Source: Minisyncoccota bacterium (lineage in GTDB: Bacteria > Patescibacteriota > Minisyncoccia > Phycocordibacterales > UBA9973). From it: 64,000 bases of DNA. The number at the start of each line of letters is the position of its first letter. Position 1 is the first letter of the stretch. The notes beneath the pieces are model-generated. The model saw only the letters and a list, made by a program, of their open reading frames with translations. It was not told the DNA's origin and did no database searches. Positions 8,087 to 35,551 of the stretch are shown in pieces. The DNA is taken from contig JAGOQQ010000003.1 of NCBI GenBank assembly GCA_017991395.1, forward strand, positions 2,400 through 66,399, written 5' to 3'. The translations under genes were made by a program, and so were the position numbers.

Positions 8087-8159
8087 GCTCGGGTAGCTCA
8101 GTTGGTAGAGCGCTCCCCTGAAGAGGGATAGGTCACCAGTTCGACCCTGGTCCCGAGCA
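8087..8159 (+). tRNA. tRNA-Phe (anticodon GAA), CCA not encoded
   Basis: Hand-folded cloverleaf: acceptor GCTCGGG/CCCGAGC, D-arm GCTC-AGTTGGTA-GAGC, anticodon loop CTGAAGA, T-arm ACCAG-TTCGACC-CTGGT; 73 nt. Confidence 0.85.
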
Positions 8160-8172
8160 CAGCACAGAATAG

Positions 8173-9132: not shown

Positions 9133-9351
9133 AATCACAGACCATTATCTATTTGTCATCGCTCTCGACTGGGACCAAAGCACAAAATCCCGCGTAGGCG
9201 GGATGTTTGTGTCTTGTGGTCACAAATATTTTTCTCGTCGTCACTCGAAAAATTTCGCGACCCCGCCTCAGTTATTCGCATTGGTATGCGAATATACTTC
9301 CGACCGGCACAAGTATCAAAAAATGCCAAGCAGTTGGCGTTTTTCTCTCTT

Positions 9352-9366
9352 GTGCCCTTACTCCGA
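9352..9366 (+). repeat. 15-bp direct repeat of the tRNA-Arg 3' end (gtgcccttactccga)
   Basis: Identical to 9525-9539, the 3' end of the minus-strand tRNA-Arg; 17 bp if the preceding tt is included. Confidence 0.75.
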
Positions 9367-9475
9367 CGCTTCGCTATCTCACTCTTTGGAAACCCACGGT
9401 TTTCCAACGTTTGCTTCGCTCACTGCCTTCCTCCACGGGAAAACTAGAGTTTTCCCGACCCCTTTCCTGTTCGAT

Positions 9476-9488
9476 TCGGAGTAAGGGC
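9476..9488 (+). repeat. inverted copy (tcggagtaagggc) of the tRNA-Arg 3' end; with 9354-9366 it forms 13-bp terminal inverted repeats around a 109-bp ORF-free segment
   Basis: Perfect reverse complement of 9354-9366. Confidence 0.7.
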
Positions 9489-9519: not shown

Positions 9520-9525
9520 ATTTTG

Positions 9526-9597
9526 TGCCCTTACTCCGAATCGAACGGAGATCTATTCCTTAGGACGGAACTGTTCTATCCATTGAACTATAAGGGC
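9526..9597 (-). tRNA. tRNA-Arg (anticodon CCU)
   Basis: Reverse complement folds as GCCCTTA-TA-GTTC-AATGGATA-GAAC-A-GTTCC-GTCCTAA-GGAAT-AGAT-CTCCG-TTCGATT-CGGAG-TAAGGGC-A; 72 nt. Confidence 0.8.
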
Positions 9598-30377: not shown

Positions 30378-30541
30378 ATAGTTTTTTATAGTACCACACT
30401 TTTGCTTTTTTTGACCTTTTTTGGTATTATAGTTGACGTATTCCCCTAGTGCTTAGCGAGCCATAAAGCTTTATAACCACGAAAGAATACATACAAAAAA
30501 AGAATATTCCCCTGTAGCTCAGCGGTAGAGCAATCGACTGT

Positions 30542-31111
30542 GGACATTTTCCGCCTGTTGTTATACTTAAGGTATGACCGACAAAAGGAAATATGCCGAT
30601 AGACGCGAGGCATTAATCAAAGCTGTTGTGAAAAGACGCAAGAAAGTAAAAGATCTTGCAATAGAATACAAAGGAGGCTCTTGCCAAATTTGTCACTACT
30701 CAAAATGTGTGGACGCTCTTGAGTTCCATCATATCAATCCTTTGGAAAAAGAATTCGGTATCGGAGCAAAAGGCTATACACGTTCTTGGGAAAGTGTTCG
30801 CAACGAATTAGATAAATGTGTTCTCTTGTGTGCAAATTGCCACAGAGAAGTTGAGTCTGGCATAACGCAGCTTTCTATCGAAAGATAGATTGAAAATGAG
30901 GTGAATTCGGGGAAACCCAAATGACGAAAAACAAGTCATGGGCAATCCCGAGCCAAGCCTTGATGAAAATCAAGGAAGGTGTAGAGACTATCCCGTAAGG
31001 GAGTAGGCTTCCGACTTTTGTTGGAACCCGAAGCGCCTCGGTCCTAAATTTTGTGGAAACAAAACACGGATATGATATAGTCCATCCCTTTAAGTAATTT
31101 TAGGATAAATG
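30542..31111 (+). mobile_element. group I intron in tRNA-Asn anticodon loop (between nt 35 and 36) carrying an HNH homing-endonuclease ORF
   Basis: Conserved group I elements: P-like gaattcggggaaa, Q-like aatcccgagc, R-like agagactat, S-like gatatagtcc. HNH ORF 30574..30888. Confidence 0.75.
30574..30888 (+). CDS. HNH endonuclease (intron-encoded)
   Basis: CQICHYSKCVDALEFHHINP...CANCHREVE: HNH nuclease motif with zinc-finger cysteines, 104 aa. Confidence 0.8.
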   Translation: MTDKRKYADRREALIKAVVKRRKKVKDLAIEYKGGSCQICHYSKCVDALEFHHINPLEKEFGIGAKGYTRSWESVRNELDKCVLLCANCHREVESGITQLSIER

Positions 31112-31198
31112 TAATCGATTGGTCGTAGGTTCGATCCCTACCGGGGGAGCATTGAATAAAAAGTTTGCCGTCCTTAAAGGGGCGGTTTTACTTTTTTA

Positions 31199-31359
31199 GC
31201 TCCGTGGAATAAAGAGAAGCTTTGTGTGTTGGGATCGAACGGATTGACGGTCTACGCAAACAACAGTTTCTGTCGCCAATCCGGTGCCCAGAAATTTTTG
31301 AGTGGCGACGAGAAAATTTCGAGGGAGATAAGTGTACTCACGTCCATACCCACGGAGCA
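31199..31359 (+). repeat. direct-repeat unit A (~161 bp): terminal 9-bp complementarity, 3' end a diverged copy of the tRNA-Asn 3' end
   Basis: Paralogous to 33068..33230 (shared gctttg...gggatc(g/a)aac...ggtgcccaga...tcgagggagataagtgtactcacgtcc). The ends gctccgtgg/ccacggagc are complementary. Confidence 0.7.
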
Positions 31360-31469
31360 CTTCTTTTACCTTCTTGATATATTCGTTCTTGGCACTACCT
31401 AGTTTGCTTTTTTCATCGAACATCATTATAATGTAGTGATACGTTCTTTAACTCTAAAAATATAAAGAT

Positions 31470-32888
31470 ATGAATCAACTCCCCATCATTATTCAAGGCG
31501 GGATGGGTGTTTGTATATCAAACTCCCACATTGCCAAAACTTGTTCTCAACACCCTTTTGTCCTTGGCACTTTGTCGGGGGTCGCTATTGAAAGGGTTGT
31601 GCCACAGGTTCTCCAGCAAGGAGATCCTGGCGGCCACTATCGGAGAGCATTGCTGCACTTTCCCTTTCCAGAAGTTGCTGAACGCGTTGTCAGTAAATAT
31701 TTTGTTGAAGGTGGCATTCCAGCAGGGAAAAAAATAAAAGCTGTCTCTGTGGTTAGCCTGCATCCCAACCGCGAATTGATTGAGCTTATGATAGTAGCGA
31801 ATTTTGCTCTCGTCTGGCTTGCGAAAGAAGGGCACAAGCGTCCCGTCAGTGTGAATTATTTGGAAAAAATTCAGATTCCTCACATTTATAACATCACCGG
31901 TGCGATAATTGCCGGAGTTGACTATCTGACAATGGGAGCTGGCATTACACTGCAGATTCCCGCTGTACTCGATTCGATTGTGTCAGGTACTGCAGTAAAC
32001 TACAGAGTACAGGTTGAAGGAAGTAAAGATGGATTTGTGACAATAAGTTTCAATCCGAAGGAATTCTTTGGTAGAGCATTGCCACCACTCAAGCGTCCAA
32101 GCTTCCTGCCCATTGTTTCAACAGATGTACTTGCAACGCTTATGGCTAAAAAACTGCCGGCTGGAAGCATTCAAGGATTTGTCATTGAAAAACCCACAGC
32201 TGGAGGCCATAACGCGCCACCGAGAACAAAAGGTGTCTTTGATGAAAAAGGTCAACCGATTTACGGACCGAAAGATGAGGTTGTTTTCAGTAAACTTCGC
32301 GAACTTGGCATTCCGTTTTGGATCGCAGGATCATGTGCCACGCAAAATAGTGTTGCGGAAGCAAGGGCGCTTGGCGCTGTTGGCATACAGGCTGGCTCAA
32401 TATTTGCACTCAGCGATGACTCTGGAATGCTTGGATATTTTCGAAATGAAATCAGGCGTCTTGGTTATCGTGGTGAACTTGAAATTCGCACTGACCCTAG
32501 AGCTTCACCGACAGGATTTCCCTTTAAAGTAGTCCAATTACCAGAGACACTATCTGATCATGCCGTGTATATTGCCCGTGAACGTGTTTGCGACGTTTGC
32601 GCGCTTCGTATTGTATGTGAACAACATGATGGTGAAATCTGTTATCGGTGCCCGGGTGAACCACTCAATGATTTCTTGCGAAAAGGAGGCAAGGTTGAAG
32701 ACACAGTCGATGCGAGGTGTCTGTGTAATGGTTTGCTTGCAGCTGCTGGATTTGGTAATCCGCTTGAACCACCGATATTTACTCTCGGTGATGATGTCAG
32801 TTTTTTGCGCCATCTCATGCGAAACGAAACAGATTCGTATGGCGCGGTTGATGCTATTAAGTATCTTTTGTCGTCTGAGAAAAATTAA
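31470..32888 (+). CDS. nitronate monooxygenase / FabK-like FMN-dependent oxidoreductase (NMO family) with Cys-rich C-terminal extension
   Basis: LPIIIQGGMGVCIS N-terminal signature of NMO/FabK TIM-barrel enzymes; C-terminal CDVCALRIVCEQHDGEICYRCPGE...CLCNG cluster. Visibly GC-richer than its surroundings. Confidence 0.65.
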   Translation: MNQLPIIIQGGMGVCISNSHIAKTCSQHPFVLGTLSGVAIERVVPQVLQQGDPGGHYRRALLHFPFPEVAERVVSKYFVEGGIPAGKKIKAVSVVSLHPNRELIELMIVANFALVWLAKEGHKRPVSVNYLEKIQIPHIYNITGAIIAGVDYLTMGAGITLQIPAVLDSIVSGTAVNYRVQVEGSKDGFVTISFNPKEFFGRALPPLKRPSFLPIVSTDVLATLMAKKLPAGSIQGFVIEKPTAGGHNAPPRTKGVFDEKGQPIYGPKDEVVFSKLRELGIPFWIAGSCATQNSVAEARALGAVGIQAGSIFALSDDSGMLGYFRNEIRRLGYRGELEIRTDPRASPTGFPFKVVQLPETLSDHAVYIARERVCDVCALRIVCEQHDGEICYRCPGEPLNDFLRKGGKVEDTVDARCLCNGLLAAAGFGNPLEPPIFTLGDDVSFLRHLMRNETDSYGAVDAIKYLLSSEKN

Positions 32889-33027
32889 ATAATAGTCCCG
32901 CTTTAAATATGATTAAGCGGGATTATTTTTTTGAAGTGCCATCACTGGAAACACCCGAAAAATCTTAAAGAACTCAATATCTCTTTTAATTTGAATCCAA
33001 TTGAGAGTTCTGAACTCGTCCAACAAA

Positions 33028-33073
33028 GGGAGCAATAAAACAAGTCACGAAAGTGGCTTTTTTTATTGCTCCC
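33028..33073 (+). repeat. 13-bp perfect inverted repeat gggagcaataaaa / ttttattgctccc with 20-nt loop
   Basis: Sequence; overlaps the start of repeat unit B. Confidence 0.6.
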
Positions 33074-33230
33074 CCGAGAAAGCAAACTGCTTTGCTTTCG
33101 TGCAGGGATCAAACAGCGGAGCGATAAATTTCAGTAGGAAATTTCGCGAGCTGGTGCCCAGACAAATACGAGCGACGGCGAGTATTTAGTCGAGGGAGAT
33201 AAGTGTACTCACGTCCCTACCGGGGGAGCA
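33068..33230 (+). repeat. direct-repeat unit B (~163 bp); last 17 nt (tccctaccgggggagca) identical to the tRNA-Asn 3' end
   Basis: Terminal complementarity gctcccccg/cgggggagc; paralogue of unit A. Confidence 0.75.
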
Positions 33231-33305
33231 AAATTTTAAACTATTTTTTACAATGGTTATTTTTTGGAGGTTAGTAGAAGTTCGAACCTATGGTAAAATA
33301 CAAAT

Positions 33306-34040
33306 ATGGAATTTGAACCTAAAAATAGTAAACCCATTGATTATGTTAAAAGTAAGATAGAAAAATCTGAATATATTAGATTTGATAAAGATAAATATCT
33401 TAAACCTCTTTTTGAATATGATTCTTATATGGAATCTGGAAGTATTAAAGGAAAGATTGGTCAATCAGAAATCGATCTTGATTACACACAAGATGATCGC
33501 AAAATTTCCAATCCAAATATTAGAAAATTAGAGAGATTTATACTAAAAAATGATAAAACAAAGCTTGATGTCCTCGGTCTTCTTTCATCAGATTATTCTA
33601 CATATATAACGACAAACATAGATAAAGAAGACACTTCTTTTGGAAGTGTTAATCGTCCCAGAGAAAGAAAAATATATGTTAATACTCCTTTATTGAGTGT
33701 TGATGGTATCATGAGTCTTTTGCATGAAATTGGTCATAATAATAGAGACAAACAACAAAGTATTTCAGAACAAAATAAAGATGAAAATAGTCTATTAAGA
33801 TTTAAAGTGTCTGGGATAGTAGAAAAAATTTTAGCAGGAATGAGTCTCAGGGGTCCAAATATTAAAGATGCTTCACGTGTTTTACGAGACGAGAGAGATT
33901 CATGGAGTTTTGCTTTACAAAAAATAAGACCTTTTATGAAAGATTTAAATATTAATATTGAGGATATGGAGAACATAATACATCACGATGCACTTTACTC
34001 ATATTCATGGCTAATAAAGGATGATGTAAAACTTGAATAA
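33306..34040 (+). CDS. hypothetical protein with HExxH zinc-metallopeptidase motif (LLHEIGHNN)
   Basis: 244 aa, very AT-rich; the only recognisable element is the HEIGH motif. Confidence 0.4.
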   Translation: MEFEPKNSKPIDYVKSKIEKSEYIRFDKDKYLKPLFEYDSYMESGSIKGKIGQSEIDLDYTQDDRKISNPNIRKLERFILKNDKTKLDVLGLLSSDYSTYITTNIDKEDTSFGSVNRPRERKIYVNTPLLSVDGIMSLLHEIGHNNRDKQQSISEQNKDENSLLRFKVSGIVEKILAGMSLRGPNIKDASRVLRDERDSWSFALQKIRPFMKDLNINIEDMENIIHHDALYSYSWLIKDDVKLE

Positions 34041-34225
34041 ATTAATAAATTTTTTATCTTTCTTTGATTATGTTTATTCGAACATCCTCCCAAGTTCGGA
34101 GCATATTAAAAAGCACCAGAAATGGTGCTTTTTAATTACCGTATACCAAGTTCGAAGCTGGTTGTCTTTGTTTTGACATTTTATGTGAATAATGTAGTAT
34201 TTGGGTAAATTAATTAGCACACAAA

Positions 34226-34771
34226 ATGGAAATAGCAAAAGAAACAGTAGATTTTCTTCATGAAAATCTACATCAAACAAGAGCTGAATATTATATTAAT
34301 TTATTTAAATCAATGTCACAAATTGACTTTGATACAAGAATAAAAAAATATTGTTTCTTAGCATCTGAACGTGAAAGAAAACATTTTCTTGGAAAGTTGG
34401 ACACCGTCTCTGCTTTACTACTTATCGCAATTAAGATTATGGAGAAGGCAATTCAGGATAGGAAGCTCAACCTAAGACATTCCAATGAAGTGGGTATCTA
34501 TGCCTCACAAAAGGAAATTCTAAAAGCACGCAGTGATTACGAAGAAGCTGAGAGCCAGATCAGTAAAGCGGCAAAGGATTATTGGAGAACAAGGAAAAAA
34601 CTTTATCAAAATATTAAAGAATGTTTTAATAAAGAATTACCCTTACTACTTGAGTCTGGGGATTTACTTAAAACTCCAGCTGATTTTTATTATCAAAACT
34701 CAGGTTACGACTTTACATTTTATGGGCAAGATATCTATGTAATTAATTGGTATCCAATGGGTGGGGATTAG
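34226..34771 (+). CDS. hypothetical protein (181 aa)
   Basis: Clean ORF, followed by a 28-nt conserved motif and a terminator-like hairpin. Confidence 0.4.
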   Translation: MEIAKETVDFLHENLHQTRAEYYINLFKSMSQIDFDTRIKKYCFLASERERKHFLGKLDTVSALLLIAIKIMEKAIQDRKLNLRHSNEVGIYASQKEILKARSDYEEAESQISKAAKDYWRTRKKLYQNIKECFNKELPLLLESGDLLKTPADFYYQNSGYDFTFYGQDIYVINWYPMGGD

Positions 34772-34912
34772 ATTATCATAAAGGTTGAATTATAAACGTT
34801 CAGCCTTTTTTTATTTCCCCTCTAAAATAACTATTCGAACTTCATCCCACGTTCGGGGCAACAAAAAACCTGCTCCGACAACGGAACAGGTATTAAATTT
34901 AGTAAATGCAAA

Positions 34913-35551
34913 TCAGGCAGACACCTGAGATCGCAATTCAATTATTTTCTTTATGATTTTCAATAGGGTTTTATCCCCCGGCTCCTCTCCTTCTTCAGGT
35001 GCACTTAAGTATGCTTTTTCTGCTTCTTCCAATGTACAATTACCATAGTCCGAAAGAGATGAATATTTTGCCCTACGAATAAATCGGATAGGTATACCTG
35101 TTTCTTTCGCCATCTTTTCGTTTTCAGAAATTTCTTCACCAAAAACAATCTGGTACCCGATTTCGTCATCAATCTGTATGCTAGTTTGCATTTGCCCGGA
35201 AACATCTCCTCCAAACGCTCTCAACATATCTGTAGTGTTTTGTGATAATAGCATTTGCTGGCTATTTCTAATTGCCTTCGATAATAAATTAATTGATAAG
35301 CCAAAAATCCACTTTTGTTTTTCTTTTAACGTTTCAATTAATTCTTTAGATGGCACGCCTTTGATCTTGAAATCATCCTTATCATTTGAATACTCAATAT
35401 TCAAATCACTATCATCAGGATCAGATATAAGGTAATTGCAGGAAACCTCATCTCCGTTTTCGTTTTTAAAGGAAAACACACCCTTAAACTGGTTTTCAAT
35501 ATCTGTCCTAGATACTGTAACAGTAAGATTAATAATATGCATATTGTTCAT
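34913..35551 (-). CDS. hypothetical protein (212 aa), acidic
   Basis: ORF only. Confidence 0.4.
   Translation of the reverse strand: MNNMHIINLTVTVSRTDIENQFKGVFSFKNENGDEVSCNYLISDPDDSDLNIEYSNDKDDFKIKGVPSKELIETLKEKQKWIFGLSINLLSKAIRNSQQMLLSQNTTDMLRAFGGDVSGQMQTSIQIDDEIGYQIVFGEEISENEKMAKETGIPIRFIRRAKYSSLSDYGNCTLEEAEKAYLSAPEEGEEPGDKTLLKIIKKIIELRSQVSA

Follow-up and report, generated by a model that had tools for sequence, protein, structure and literature searches.

A structured element with a constant core and tRNA-specific ends lies at module boundaries behind tRNA genes in Patescibacteria

We analysed 64,000 nucleotides of a Minisyncoccota bacterium (assembly GCA_017991395.1, contig JAGOQQ010000003.1, positions 2,400 to 66,399 of the forward strand); this whole stretch is referred to here as the window. 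It contains a tRNA-Asn(GUU) gene followed, on the same strand, by a structured element (unit A, 31199–31359), a gene for an NMO/FabK-like flavin oxidoreductase (31470–32888) and a second copy of the element (unit B, 33068–33230). A preliminary description had regarded A and B as an attL/attR-like pair flanking an island integrated at the tRNA gene. The tRNA-end repeats at the units are genuine recombination junctions. The evidence does not bear out A and B as merely the termini of a single decayed island; each is a copy of a structured element that stands behind many tRNA genes, usually without cargo.

The extents of A and B and their 9-bp self-complementary termini (GCTCCGTGG/CCACGGAGC in A, GCTCCCCCG/CGGGGGAGC in B) were confirmed, and the differences between the two pairs of termini are compensatory. 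The units can be aligned end to end and share an identical 27-nt block, TCGAGGGAGATAAGTGTACTCACGTCC, that is found nowhere else in the window. Their closing helix, P1, is formed by GCUCCGUGG/CCACGGAGC in A, where P2 to P6 follow, and by GCUCCCCCG/CGGGGGAGC in B. As RNA of the + strand, A folds with −56.6 kcal/mol (z = −4.1 versus shuffles) and B with −70.7 kcal/mol (z = −6.8), and both fold more poorly on the minus strand. A covariance model of the type-I element (R1) scores A at 114.9 bits (E = 1.6e-29) and B at 168.4 bits (E = 4e-44). Each unit ends in a version of the 3′ end of tRNA-Asn, a repeat that we call X. The first X, copy 0, is the tRNA end itself plus the A that follows it (TCCCTACCGGGGGAGCA, 31135–31151). 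The last 17 nt of B (X copy 3, 33214–33230) match it at 17/17 positions, where shuffled sequence gives an expectation of 0.01 at ≤3 mismatches. The end of A (X copy 1, TCCATACCCACGGAGCA, 31343–31359) is, as previously proposed, a degenerate version of the 17-mer (76% identity, 4/17 positions different), and the differing positions are matched by compensating changes in A's own 5′ strand.

No known RNA family accounts for the units. At the gathering score, Rfam 15 matched a group I intron and two tRNAs in the whole window and nothing at A or B; at E ≤ 10 on 30400–33400, the only hits over the units were chance-level small nucleolar RNAs and microRNAs (E > 0.4). A full-text search of the literature found no description of such an element. 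To find relatives, a 19-mer from the shared block was scanned against one genome per species. Twelve of the 13 loci recovered belong to the candidate phyla radiation (CPR), namely Paceibacteria/Paceibacterota, Parcubacteria RAAC4, Saccharibacteria and Taylorbacteria, and the other is a chance match in Dorea. A gapped-pattern scan of metagenomes was too loose, returning 120 loci that were mostly chance and ∼10 real copies. A phage or plasmid origin was considered and rejected: three unit patterns gave 0, 0 and 1 match among the viral contigs of IMG/VR, and the single match was a chance one that the covariance model did not confirm.

Comparison of the copies gives good support for a common fold. 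RNAalifold, run on a MAFFT alignment of 22 units, yielded 51 pairs, 41 of them with compensatory changes. When 27 distinct units were aligned with the covariance model, 95.2% of the cells in these pairs could pair, compared to 72% after column shuffling and 40–48% when the registers were slid by 1–3 columns. Changes on both sides were seen for 42/51 pairs, and 0/500 shuffles reached any of the observed measures. One caveat here is that the 27-unit alignment is fitted to the model; the MAFFT and RNAalifold run is independent of it. G-U cells outnumber A-C cells (61 versus 15), and this excess identifies the tRNA-sense strand as the one that folds. These data show that the units form a conserved, covarying structured family that is new with respect to Rfam 15.

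The common architecture, ∼165 nt overall, begins with the closing helix P1, followed by hairpin P2 (often AGCAAACUGCUUUGCU), helix P3, the unpaired motif AUCGAAC and hairpin P4. Then come GCUGGUGCCCAGAC, hairpin P5, AGUCGAGGGAGAUAAG and a small hairpin, P6 (GUG-UACU-CAC). Conservation is concentrated in a core made up of AUCGAAC, P4, GGUGCCCAGAC, P5, AGUCGAGGGAGAUAAG and P6. Between units at Glu, Val, Asn and Gly tRNAs of different CPR classes, the core from J3/4 to P6 is 89–97% identical, and the unit ends are 31–64% identical in the same comparison. Thus, the element combines a constant core with tRNA-specific ends. The units contain no T loop, D arm or anticodon arm, and only the 3′ strand of the acceptor/T stem has been copied.

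The link to tRNA genes is close. A unit typically starts 24–48 nt past a tRNA gene on the same strand, just beyond the terminator hairpin of that gene, and its last 13–19 nt reproduce the T-stem 3′ strand, the acceptor 3′ strand and the discriminator. Upstream sequence was long enough to assess 30 units; 19 of them are preceded by a tRNA gene on the same strand at a distance of ≤200 nt, and the remainder are internal members of arrays. Ten of the 19 tRNA-linked units have ≥13 contiguous nt in common with the tRNA 3′ end. Most units stand behind a tRNA without cargo of any kind. Eight tRNA identities serve as partners: Arg, Val, Gly, Glu, Gln, Trp, Phe and Asn. With loci outside the window given as L numbers, these are tRNA-Arg-CCU (L006), Arg-GCG (L009, L044), Gly-UCC (L013, L048), Glu (L011, L036), Gln (L001), Trp (L017), Gly-CCC (L008), Phe and Arg-CCU (both L015), Val (L007) and Asn (the window, L004, L141).

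The 5′ strand of a unit complements the tRNA 3′ end and, as L006 illustrates, is not a copy of the 5′ acceptor strand of the tRNA. We considered whether the units are tRNA pseudogenes and rejected the idea, since, as L006 again shows, the 5′ strand is complementary to the 3′ strand in its own right. On the 3′ strand, P1 and P3 are continuous, and together they make up a helix of ∼15 bp, a duplex image of the tRNA gene end, from which P2 branches off and in which the conserved core takes the place of the T loop. The antisense segment in L008 is perfectly complementary to the neighbouring tRNA, but its pairing with the 3′ end of its own unit relies on wobbles and includes one mismatch.

Within the window, the tRNA-Asn end is present not in three copies, as the preliminary description had implied, but in six, spanning 31135–34860. 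X copy 2 (33018–33034) closes psi1 (32990–33034), a short element resembling a tRNA 3′ half (...TCCAATTGAGAGTTCTGAACTCGTCCAACAAAGGGAGCA, with the end sequence GTCCAACAAAGGGAGCA) and homologous to a psi element that stands in for tRNA-Asn in contig L142. The end of psi1 and the start of unit B form a long hairpin and terminator (33028–33073), in which GGGAGCAATAAAA of psi1 pairs with TTTTTATTGCTCCC of the unit B 5′ end (inverted repeat I1, 21-nt arms, 90%). According to a terminator scan, it encloses an inner terminator hairpin, and its fold has a z of −6.4. Beyond B is a cargo open reading frame (ORF) of 244 aa with an HExxH motif and no Pfam hit (ORF244, 33306–34040). It is followed by psi2a (34077–34103, X copy 4), a mini-hairpin composed of UUCGAAC, the loop AUCCUCCCAA, GUUCGGA and then GCA (fold z = −6.4). 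A terminator comes next (34105–34135), and the same motif is seen in L012 and L141. A second cargo ORF, of 181 aa and likewise with no Pfam hit (ORF181, 34226–34771), precedes psi2b (34834–34860, TTCGAACTTCATCCCACGTTCGGGGCA, X copy 5), which also has a terminator behind it and is probably the last junction of the array. The psi2 elements share one build, with a 7-bp stem, a 10-nt loop, a GCA tail and a terminator next to it. They retain the top three acceptor pairs and the discriminator G of tRNA-Asn, with the terminators downstream, and among ∼0.9 Mb of loci the motif is confined to Asn-type arrays. The order is therefore tRNA-Asn / terminator-A / NMO-psi1 / terminator-B / ORF244-psi2 / ORF181-psi2, with at least five modules reaching to ∼34.86 kb. 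The stretch from 33306 to 35551 is low in GC, and the ORF at 34913–35551 is also without a family.

Long hairpins of the kind seen between psi1 and unit B are found in other loci as well. The end of the tRNA (or psi) and the 5′ end of the next unit act as the arms, with the terminator enclosed. Such a hairpin is perfect over 26 and 29 bp in L015 (around 2405–2440 and 1698–1740) and over 18 bp in L008 (around 2738–2790). The palindromes in these two loci, made up of the tRNA 3′ end, its trailer and the 5′ end of the unit, take in AT-rich spacer. Their complementarity is far above what a terminator needs, and templated copying or homogenisation by template switching is a possible cause. We asked whether the hairpins could be terminators of minus-strand genes and rejected this, as the G-U pairs of terminators and units lie on the + strand.

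Variation between strains bears directly on the module boundaries. The relevant contigs (L134–L143) are Logan contigs from runs SRR110883xx–884xx, and among those bearing the identical NMO protein, only L141 and L142 were informative. Contigs with identical PK, NMO, ORF244 and ORF181 proteins show the arrangement of the window or break at the units, with these two as exceptions. L141 has an intronless tRNA-Asn followed by an A-NMO-B block that is 97.5% identical to the window, and all sequence 5′ of the tRNA is different. Divergence from the window starts exactly after the ...GGGGGAGC of unit B, where L141 has two GNAT genes in place of ORF244 and ORF181. This GNAT module is flanked by direct repeats consisting of GGAGCC plus a terminator. 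Along a shared 2.4 kb, L142 and L141 are 99.4% identical, and the two split exactly at GGAGC/ATTGAAT (GGAGC/ATTGAATAAAAAG); left of the split, L141 has tRNA-Asn and L142 has a 204-aa ORF and a short psi element. The two comparisons, L141 with L142 and the window with L141, bracket the point of exchange to the shared 5-nt GGAGC, tRNA positions 70–74. In all, the A-NMO-B block was found at 97% identity in three different contexts. Unit B of both L141 and L142 has lost its terminator and P1 5′ strand through a 50-nt deletion between AGCA repeats. The exact empty site, with tRNA-Asn ...GGAGC leading directly to 33231 onward (AAAATTTTAAAC), was not found. Collectively, these data show that units and psi elements occupy module boundaries, and that strains differ by whole modules with breakpoints at the end of the helix.

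The Logan contigs with identical PK or NMO proteins start or stop ∼150–350 nt from the region of tRNA-Asn and unit A. Short-read contigs end at units, which is to be expected of repeats, and a practical consequence is that the units fragment short-read assemblies of CPR genomes. L141 and L142 also carry, in different cassettes, nearly the same promoter-like sequence, TTGACTTTTT(T)ATATTTTTATGCTATTATA (L141 3461–3490, L142 50–79), which suggests a common 5′ module of cassettes.

Arrays are not peculiar to the window. Units recur every 0.2–2.6 kb with genes between them: three units lie behind tRNA-Gln in L001, with two ORFs in each interval, and two each were found in L120, L015, L017, L005 and L083. 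L083 in addition has seven psi copies of the form GATTCCAATTTGAAC-NNNN-TAGGGTCAC, the end of tRNA-Glu, 0.5–1.3 kb apart and each with a terminator after it; both of its units end in TAGGGTCAC too. The cargo is small and varied, including HAD hydrolase, NUDIX, HD, PNPOx-like, trypsin-like peptidase, ArsR/ArsP, NAD-binding epimerase and GNAT proteins as well as hypotheticals. Small cassettes that each end in a structured imperfect palindrome, as in integrons, are present in the window, L001, L083, L120 and L141.

We found no candidate for an enzyme acting on these arrays. Pfam searches of 20 cassette ORFs (family by family) and 72 neighbours (top families only) revealed no enriched family, no recombinase and no IS110, TnpB or IscB gene. 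The absence of an integrase noted in the preliminary description was borne out by phmmer (E ≤ 1), which, within the sensitivity of a search with XerD and lambda Int as queries, detected no homologue of either among six-frame ORFs of the window and 29 unit-bearing loci; serine, DDE, HUH and DEDD enzymes were not exhaustively searched in the same set.

The tRNA-Asn gene beside unit A is real, as had been claimed, but it is interrupted by a 570-nt group I intron. By reading of the sequence, exon 1 (30508–30541, +) comprises the acceptor 5′ strand, the D arm and the anticodon stem up to anticodon nt 35, and it shows 100% identity with the corresponding 5′ half in L141, a metagenome contig whose intronless tRNA-Asn gene is called by ARAGORN. 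The intron (30542–31111) sits in the anticodon loop, between anticodon nt 35 and 36, and scores 58.3 bits with Rfam RF00028 (gathering score 50); the match of the window scan spans 30828–31104. Inside it is an ORF for an HNH homing endonuclease (30574–30888, +; Pfam HNH E = 1.9e-4). Exon 2, read from the sequence and the L141 allele, is at 31112–31150. In L141, window position 30541 is joined straight to 31112 in a clean junction, and ARAGORN calls the product as tRNA-Asn(GUU); this intronless allele fixes the exon/intron boundaries. The tRNA-Asn of the Paceibacterota genome L004 is occupied by the same intron and HNH ORF. On the window itself, ARAGORN called only tRNA-Phe and tRNA-Arg, missing the split tRNA-Asn, and reported no tRNA or transfer-messenger RNA (tmRNA) at the units. 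In practice, then, standard tRNA finders miss intron-split tRNA genes next to units. The trailer (31152–31198) contains an intrinsic-terminator hairpin (31167–31186) with a T run, according to the terminator scan, and in the predicted fold the sequences flanking it pair with each other, the A-rich GGAGC end of X on one side and the U-rich 5′ end of unit A (GCTCC) on the other.

The NMO-like gene (31470–32888, +) encodes 472 aa with a C-terminal Cys cluster and is taken as the cargo of one module. A promoter-like sequence, TTGCTT-17 nt-TATAAT (31404–31432), was read in front of it, and a consensus scan did not report it. Its position between unit A and the gene implies that A is not required as a 5′ untranslated region. 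The Pfam NMO match (PF03060) is weak, at 19.3 bits with a cut-off of 28, and the match to FabK in the PDB (4iql) has E = 4.6e-4. There are ∼8000 homologues at E ≤ 1e-5, mostly in Patescibacteria. Many are 60–70% identical and named nitronate monooxygenase, and many of these bear a precomputed PF03060 assignment. The Cys cluster, previously considered unusual, is a family-wide trait among thousands of homologues, with C374, C394, C417 and C419 invariant in 13 aligned homologues. A 13-bp inverted repeat reported earlier proved to be the terminator hairpin of the gene (32887–32931; inverted repeat I6, 17-nt arms, 88% complementary, then a T run).

The claim that this gene is GC-richer held for overall GC, at 45.7% the highest of the 52 ORFs scored though only modestly in excess (z = +2.15), but not for GC at third codon positions (GC3), which is ordinary at 35.9% (z = +0.9). 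The strongest compositional outlier among the 52 is instead the ORF at 33306–34040 (GC 28.6%, z = −3.4; GC3 15.9%, z = −3.5). The gene does not always travel with units: around homologues of 82% and 67% identity the gene neighbourhood is unrelated, and no tRNA gene or unit occurs within 5 kb. Given these unrelated contexts, the NMO-like gene is plausibly cargo at this locus.

Two further units lie on the minus strand of the window. Behind tRNA-Arg(CCU) (9525–9597) is a type-II unit (9347–9486, z = −3.8), which has a 13-bp closing stem, GCCCUUACUCCGA/UCGGAGUAAGGGC, and no P2 hairpin, and whose final 15 nt repeat the 3′ end of tRNA-Arg exactly. Directly behind it is a degenerate type-I unit (9187–9353; R1 37.6 bits, E = 1.6e-8). 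The tRNA-Phe gene of the window (8087–8160) has no unit; the same is true of tRNA-Phe in L006, and that of L015 has one. Further subfamilies follow the same plan (antisense 5′ end, P2, P3, sense 3′ end) with other cores, such as GUACUGAACCUGUAAGGUUCGA. Units of these subfamilies are at L001 4271–4413, 5774–5974 and 7351–7516, L083 1381–1523, L120 1099–1252 and L008 2103–2227, and the one at L001 5774–5974 is a subfamily-3 unit fused to the 3′ third of a type-I unit. P6 can be either GUG-UACU-CAC or GC-GAA-GC, the latter in the window (9374–9380 and 9419–9425, minus strand), L008 (2166) and L017 (1544). GCGAAGC is an unusually stable DNA mini-hairpin. We considered it as a sign of single-stranded DNA folding; it is at P6 in four units, but across the loci it is no more frequent than expected, and we took it as a hint and not as decisive. 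Two unit-bearing CPR contigs also contain LOOT RNA (Rfam RF03000; L012 6584–6699, 86.7 bits; L083 9352–9480, minus strand, 75.4 bits), which has no obvious link to the units.

The fold that underlies these arrays, be it of RNA or of DNA, appears to be undescribed. Its closest functional analogue would be an attC array that lacks an integrase and is joined to a tRNA integration site. Integron attC arrays and clusters of attC sites lacking integrases (CALIN), for example the Vibrio cholerae repeats, likewise string together accessory cassettes, most of them with a single gene. An imperfect palindrome of 60–170 nt, conserved in structure beyond its sequence, closes every cassette, one particular strand folds, the junction is at the 3′ end of the fold, and many arrays have no adjacent integrase. 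The arrays described here differ in several respects. No IntI-type tyrosine recombinase was found, and the end of a tRNA gene takes the place of attI as the primary site. The attC consensus RYYYAAC...GTTRRRY is absent; AUCGAAC (RYYRAAC) is internal, has no 3′ GTTRRRY to go with it, and the ends are tRNA-specific. Instead of a simple hairpin, the units form a multi-helix junction that has a conserved core. The cassettes have their own promoters and terminators, and psi and unit junctions are mixed in one array.

Other systems share some of these features. Tycheposon arrays and related tRNA-targeting islands, which encode tyrosine or serine recombinases and have att repeats of ∼40 nt of plain tRNA sequence (bioRxiv 10.1101/2020.12.28.424599), resemble the present arrays in that they integrate at tRNA 3′ ends, accrete in tandem with older modules displaced outward, and contain scattered partial-tRNA direct repeats and cargo-only remnants. 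Here, however, no recombinase is nearby, modules are only 0.2–1.9 kb, the shared crossover core is down to 5–9 nt and a structured element accompanies the repeat. CTX phage and integrative mobile elements exploiting Xer (IMEX) are also integrase-less, with a folded single-stranded site that mimics the target and a host recombinase, XerCD, supplied in trans; their target is dif and not a tRNA gene, and Xer is not implicated here. An acceptor/T-stem-like helix with a discriminator-like tail is seen in mascRNA/MALAT1, viral tRNA-like structures, the Y RNA YrlA and tmRNA. Unlike these RNAs, the units copy the adjacent tRNA base by base and on the 3′ strand alone, and match neither Rfam tRNA-like families nor ARAGORN. 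Finally, the bridge RNA of IS110 and the omega RNA of TnpB also join a constant scaffold of ∼120–180 nt to short target-matching segments, but the matching segments of the units pair in cis, and there is no adjacent cognate gene and no similarity in sequence or in Rfam.

Our tentative preference, held at somewhat less than even odds, is that units and psi elements are the attachment or junction sites of small, recombinase-less cassettes at tRNA 3′ ends, an integron-like arrangement served in trans. The outer helix, P1 plus P3, imitates in double-stranded form the last 15–20 nt of the tRNA gene that the unit follows. By analogy with integron attC and the folded attP of CTX phage, the site would be read as a fold-back of the tRNA-sense strand, with the tRNA gene itself as the primary site and the recombinase encoded elsewhere. 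A cargo-less unit would be a minimal cassette, and the NMO-like gene would be cargo. As that strand is transcribed too, the mimic would probably serve also as an RNA substrate of tRNA-end enzymes. Several observations weigh against the attachment-site reading. Searches turned up neither a recombinase nor an excised circle nor an exact empty site, so that integration is deduced from static polymorphism in a single metagenome population. The multi-helix type-I core is elaborate and has unpaired stretches that do not vary, features seen more often in functional RNAs than in DNA sites, and psi2 stems hold one or two U-G pairs per 7 bp, which are weak in DNA. The units do not match the attC consensus; their position after terminators is instead awkward for an RNA. 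Units without the P1 5′ strand persist (L017; unit B of L141 and L142), and some cargo ORFs in L083 are oriented against the array. Lastly, homologous recombination between repeated modules, for instance after natural transformation, could give the same breakpoints without any dedicated enzyme.

Some of the features that sit badly with an attachment site would suit a stand-alone RNA mimicking tRNA ends, a possibility that we regard as real if on balance doubtful. Here the unit would be a stable noncoding RNA, co-transcribed by read-through from the tRNA or the preceding gene. P1 and P3 would imitate the acceptor/T-stem minihelix, which RNase P, RNase Z and the CCA-adding enzyme would excise and finish, as in tRNA punctuation or for mascRNA, and the core would function at the RNA level, e.g. 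by sequestering, as a decoy or sponge, some enzyme or toxin that recognises tRNA 3′ ends. Cassette accretion would then be a separate, integrase-driven process using the same partial-tRNA repeats. Strong covariation with a G-U excess on the tRNA-sense strand is what such an RNA should show, as is a complex core with invariant unpaired motifs and 89–97% identity across classes. Also in keeping with it, most units follow a tRNA without cargo, and the mini-hairpins, with their acceptor pairs and discriminator, are upstream of terminators and hence inside transcripts. The units, however, are downstream of intrinsic-terminator hairpins and, according to the terminator and promoter scans, have no promoter of their own. 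An RNA role also leaves unexplained the DNA breakpoints at the helix end between 99%-identical strains, and the near-perfect 18–29-bp palindromes that join the tRNA end to the unit 5′ end, and it too must accommodate the persistence of copies lacking the P1 5′ strand. RNA-level and DNA-level roles are not mutually exclusive: the complexity of the core and the G-U-rich mini-hairpins favour the former, and the preceding terminator, the perfect palindromes and the DNA breakpoints favour the latter. A third reading is a programmable guide RNA, part of a new cassette-capture system peculiar to the CPR, in which the core is a protein-binding scaffold and the tRNA-matched ends direct a recombinase or nuclease encoded in trans to the tRNA-gene end. 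The guides would be the variable antisense 5′ segments (X′ plus the P3 5′ strand), accompanied by a 3′ sense copy, comparable to the IS110 bridge and TnpB omega RNAs. A constant scaffold with target-matching ends across eight tRNA identities has this look, the antisense segment of L008 fits its tRNA better than its own 3′ end, and an effector would have to act in trans given that no protein is encoded in cis. We nevertheless consider it unlikely. The supposed guides are paired in cis and not exposed in loops, Pfam scans of neighbours showed no IS110, TnpB or IscB gene beside any unit, nothing alike is in Rfam, and psi elements mark junctions too despite having no scaffold.

Two other explanations fare less well. 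Selfish palindromes, similar to miniature inverted-repeat transposable elements, might spread to tRNA trailers with no function for the host; template-switch homogenisation would make their stems covary, and cassette variation would be a by-product of homologous recombination between dispersed copies. The near-perfect long palindromes fit this picture, as do the multiple copies with variable presence (a unit at tRNA-Phe in L015 and none in the window or L006) and the breaks of short-read assemblies at units. We think it quite unlikely, as P2, P4 and P5 covary while the flanking unpaired motifs stay invariant across phyla, and template switching does not account for a 3′ end equal to that of the neighbouring tRNA at eight tRNAs. 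Improbable, too, is the model of the preliminary description, a single decayed or trans-mobilised island at tRNA-Asn with A and B as attL/attR-like ends and the NMO-like gene as cargo. tRNA-end direct repeats do flank that gene, its homologues are located elsewhere in other genomes, and A-NMO-B travels as a block at 97% identity in three contexts. Yet the occurrence of the A/B family behind many tRNAs without cargo largely refutes the model. It also fails to anticipate that the end of A differs from tRNA-Asn at 4/17 positions compensated in its own 5′ strand, that there are six tRNA-end copies in at least five modules, and that the GC3 of the NMO-like gene is normal.

The underlying feature is thus considerably more general than a decayed islet. 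CPR bacteria (Patescibacteria) have tiny genomes and few recognisable mobile elements. At the same time, horizontal transfer has been credited with up to ∼13% of the length of their genomes (PMC12455944). A module that mimics tRNA ends and marks where genes enter and leave would, if our favoured attachment-site reading is true, give gene flux in the CPR a concrete mechanism. If the ends specify the target, the element would be a compact, retargetable platform for integration, moved from one tRNA to another by a change of ends only, and the guide-RNA alternative, if true, would make it an RNA-specified counterpart of the integron among organisms regarded as poor in mobile elements. In addition, a widespread structured element joins the unexplained RNAs of bacteria, unusual in that its core is constant and its ends replicate those of the tRNA next to it.

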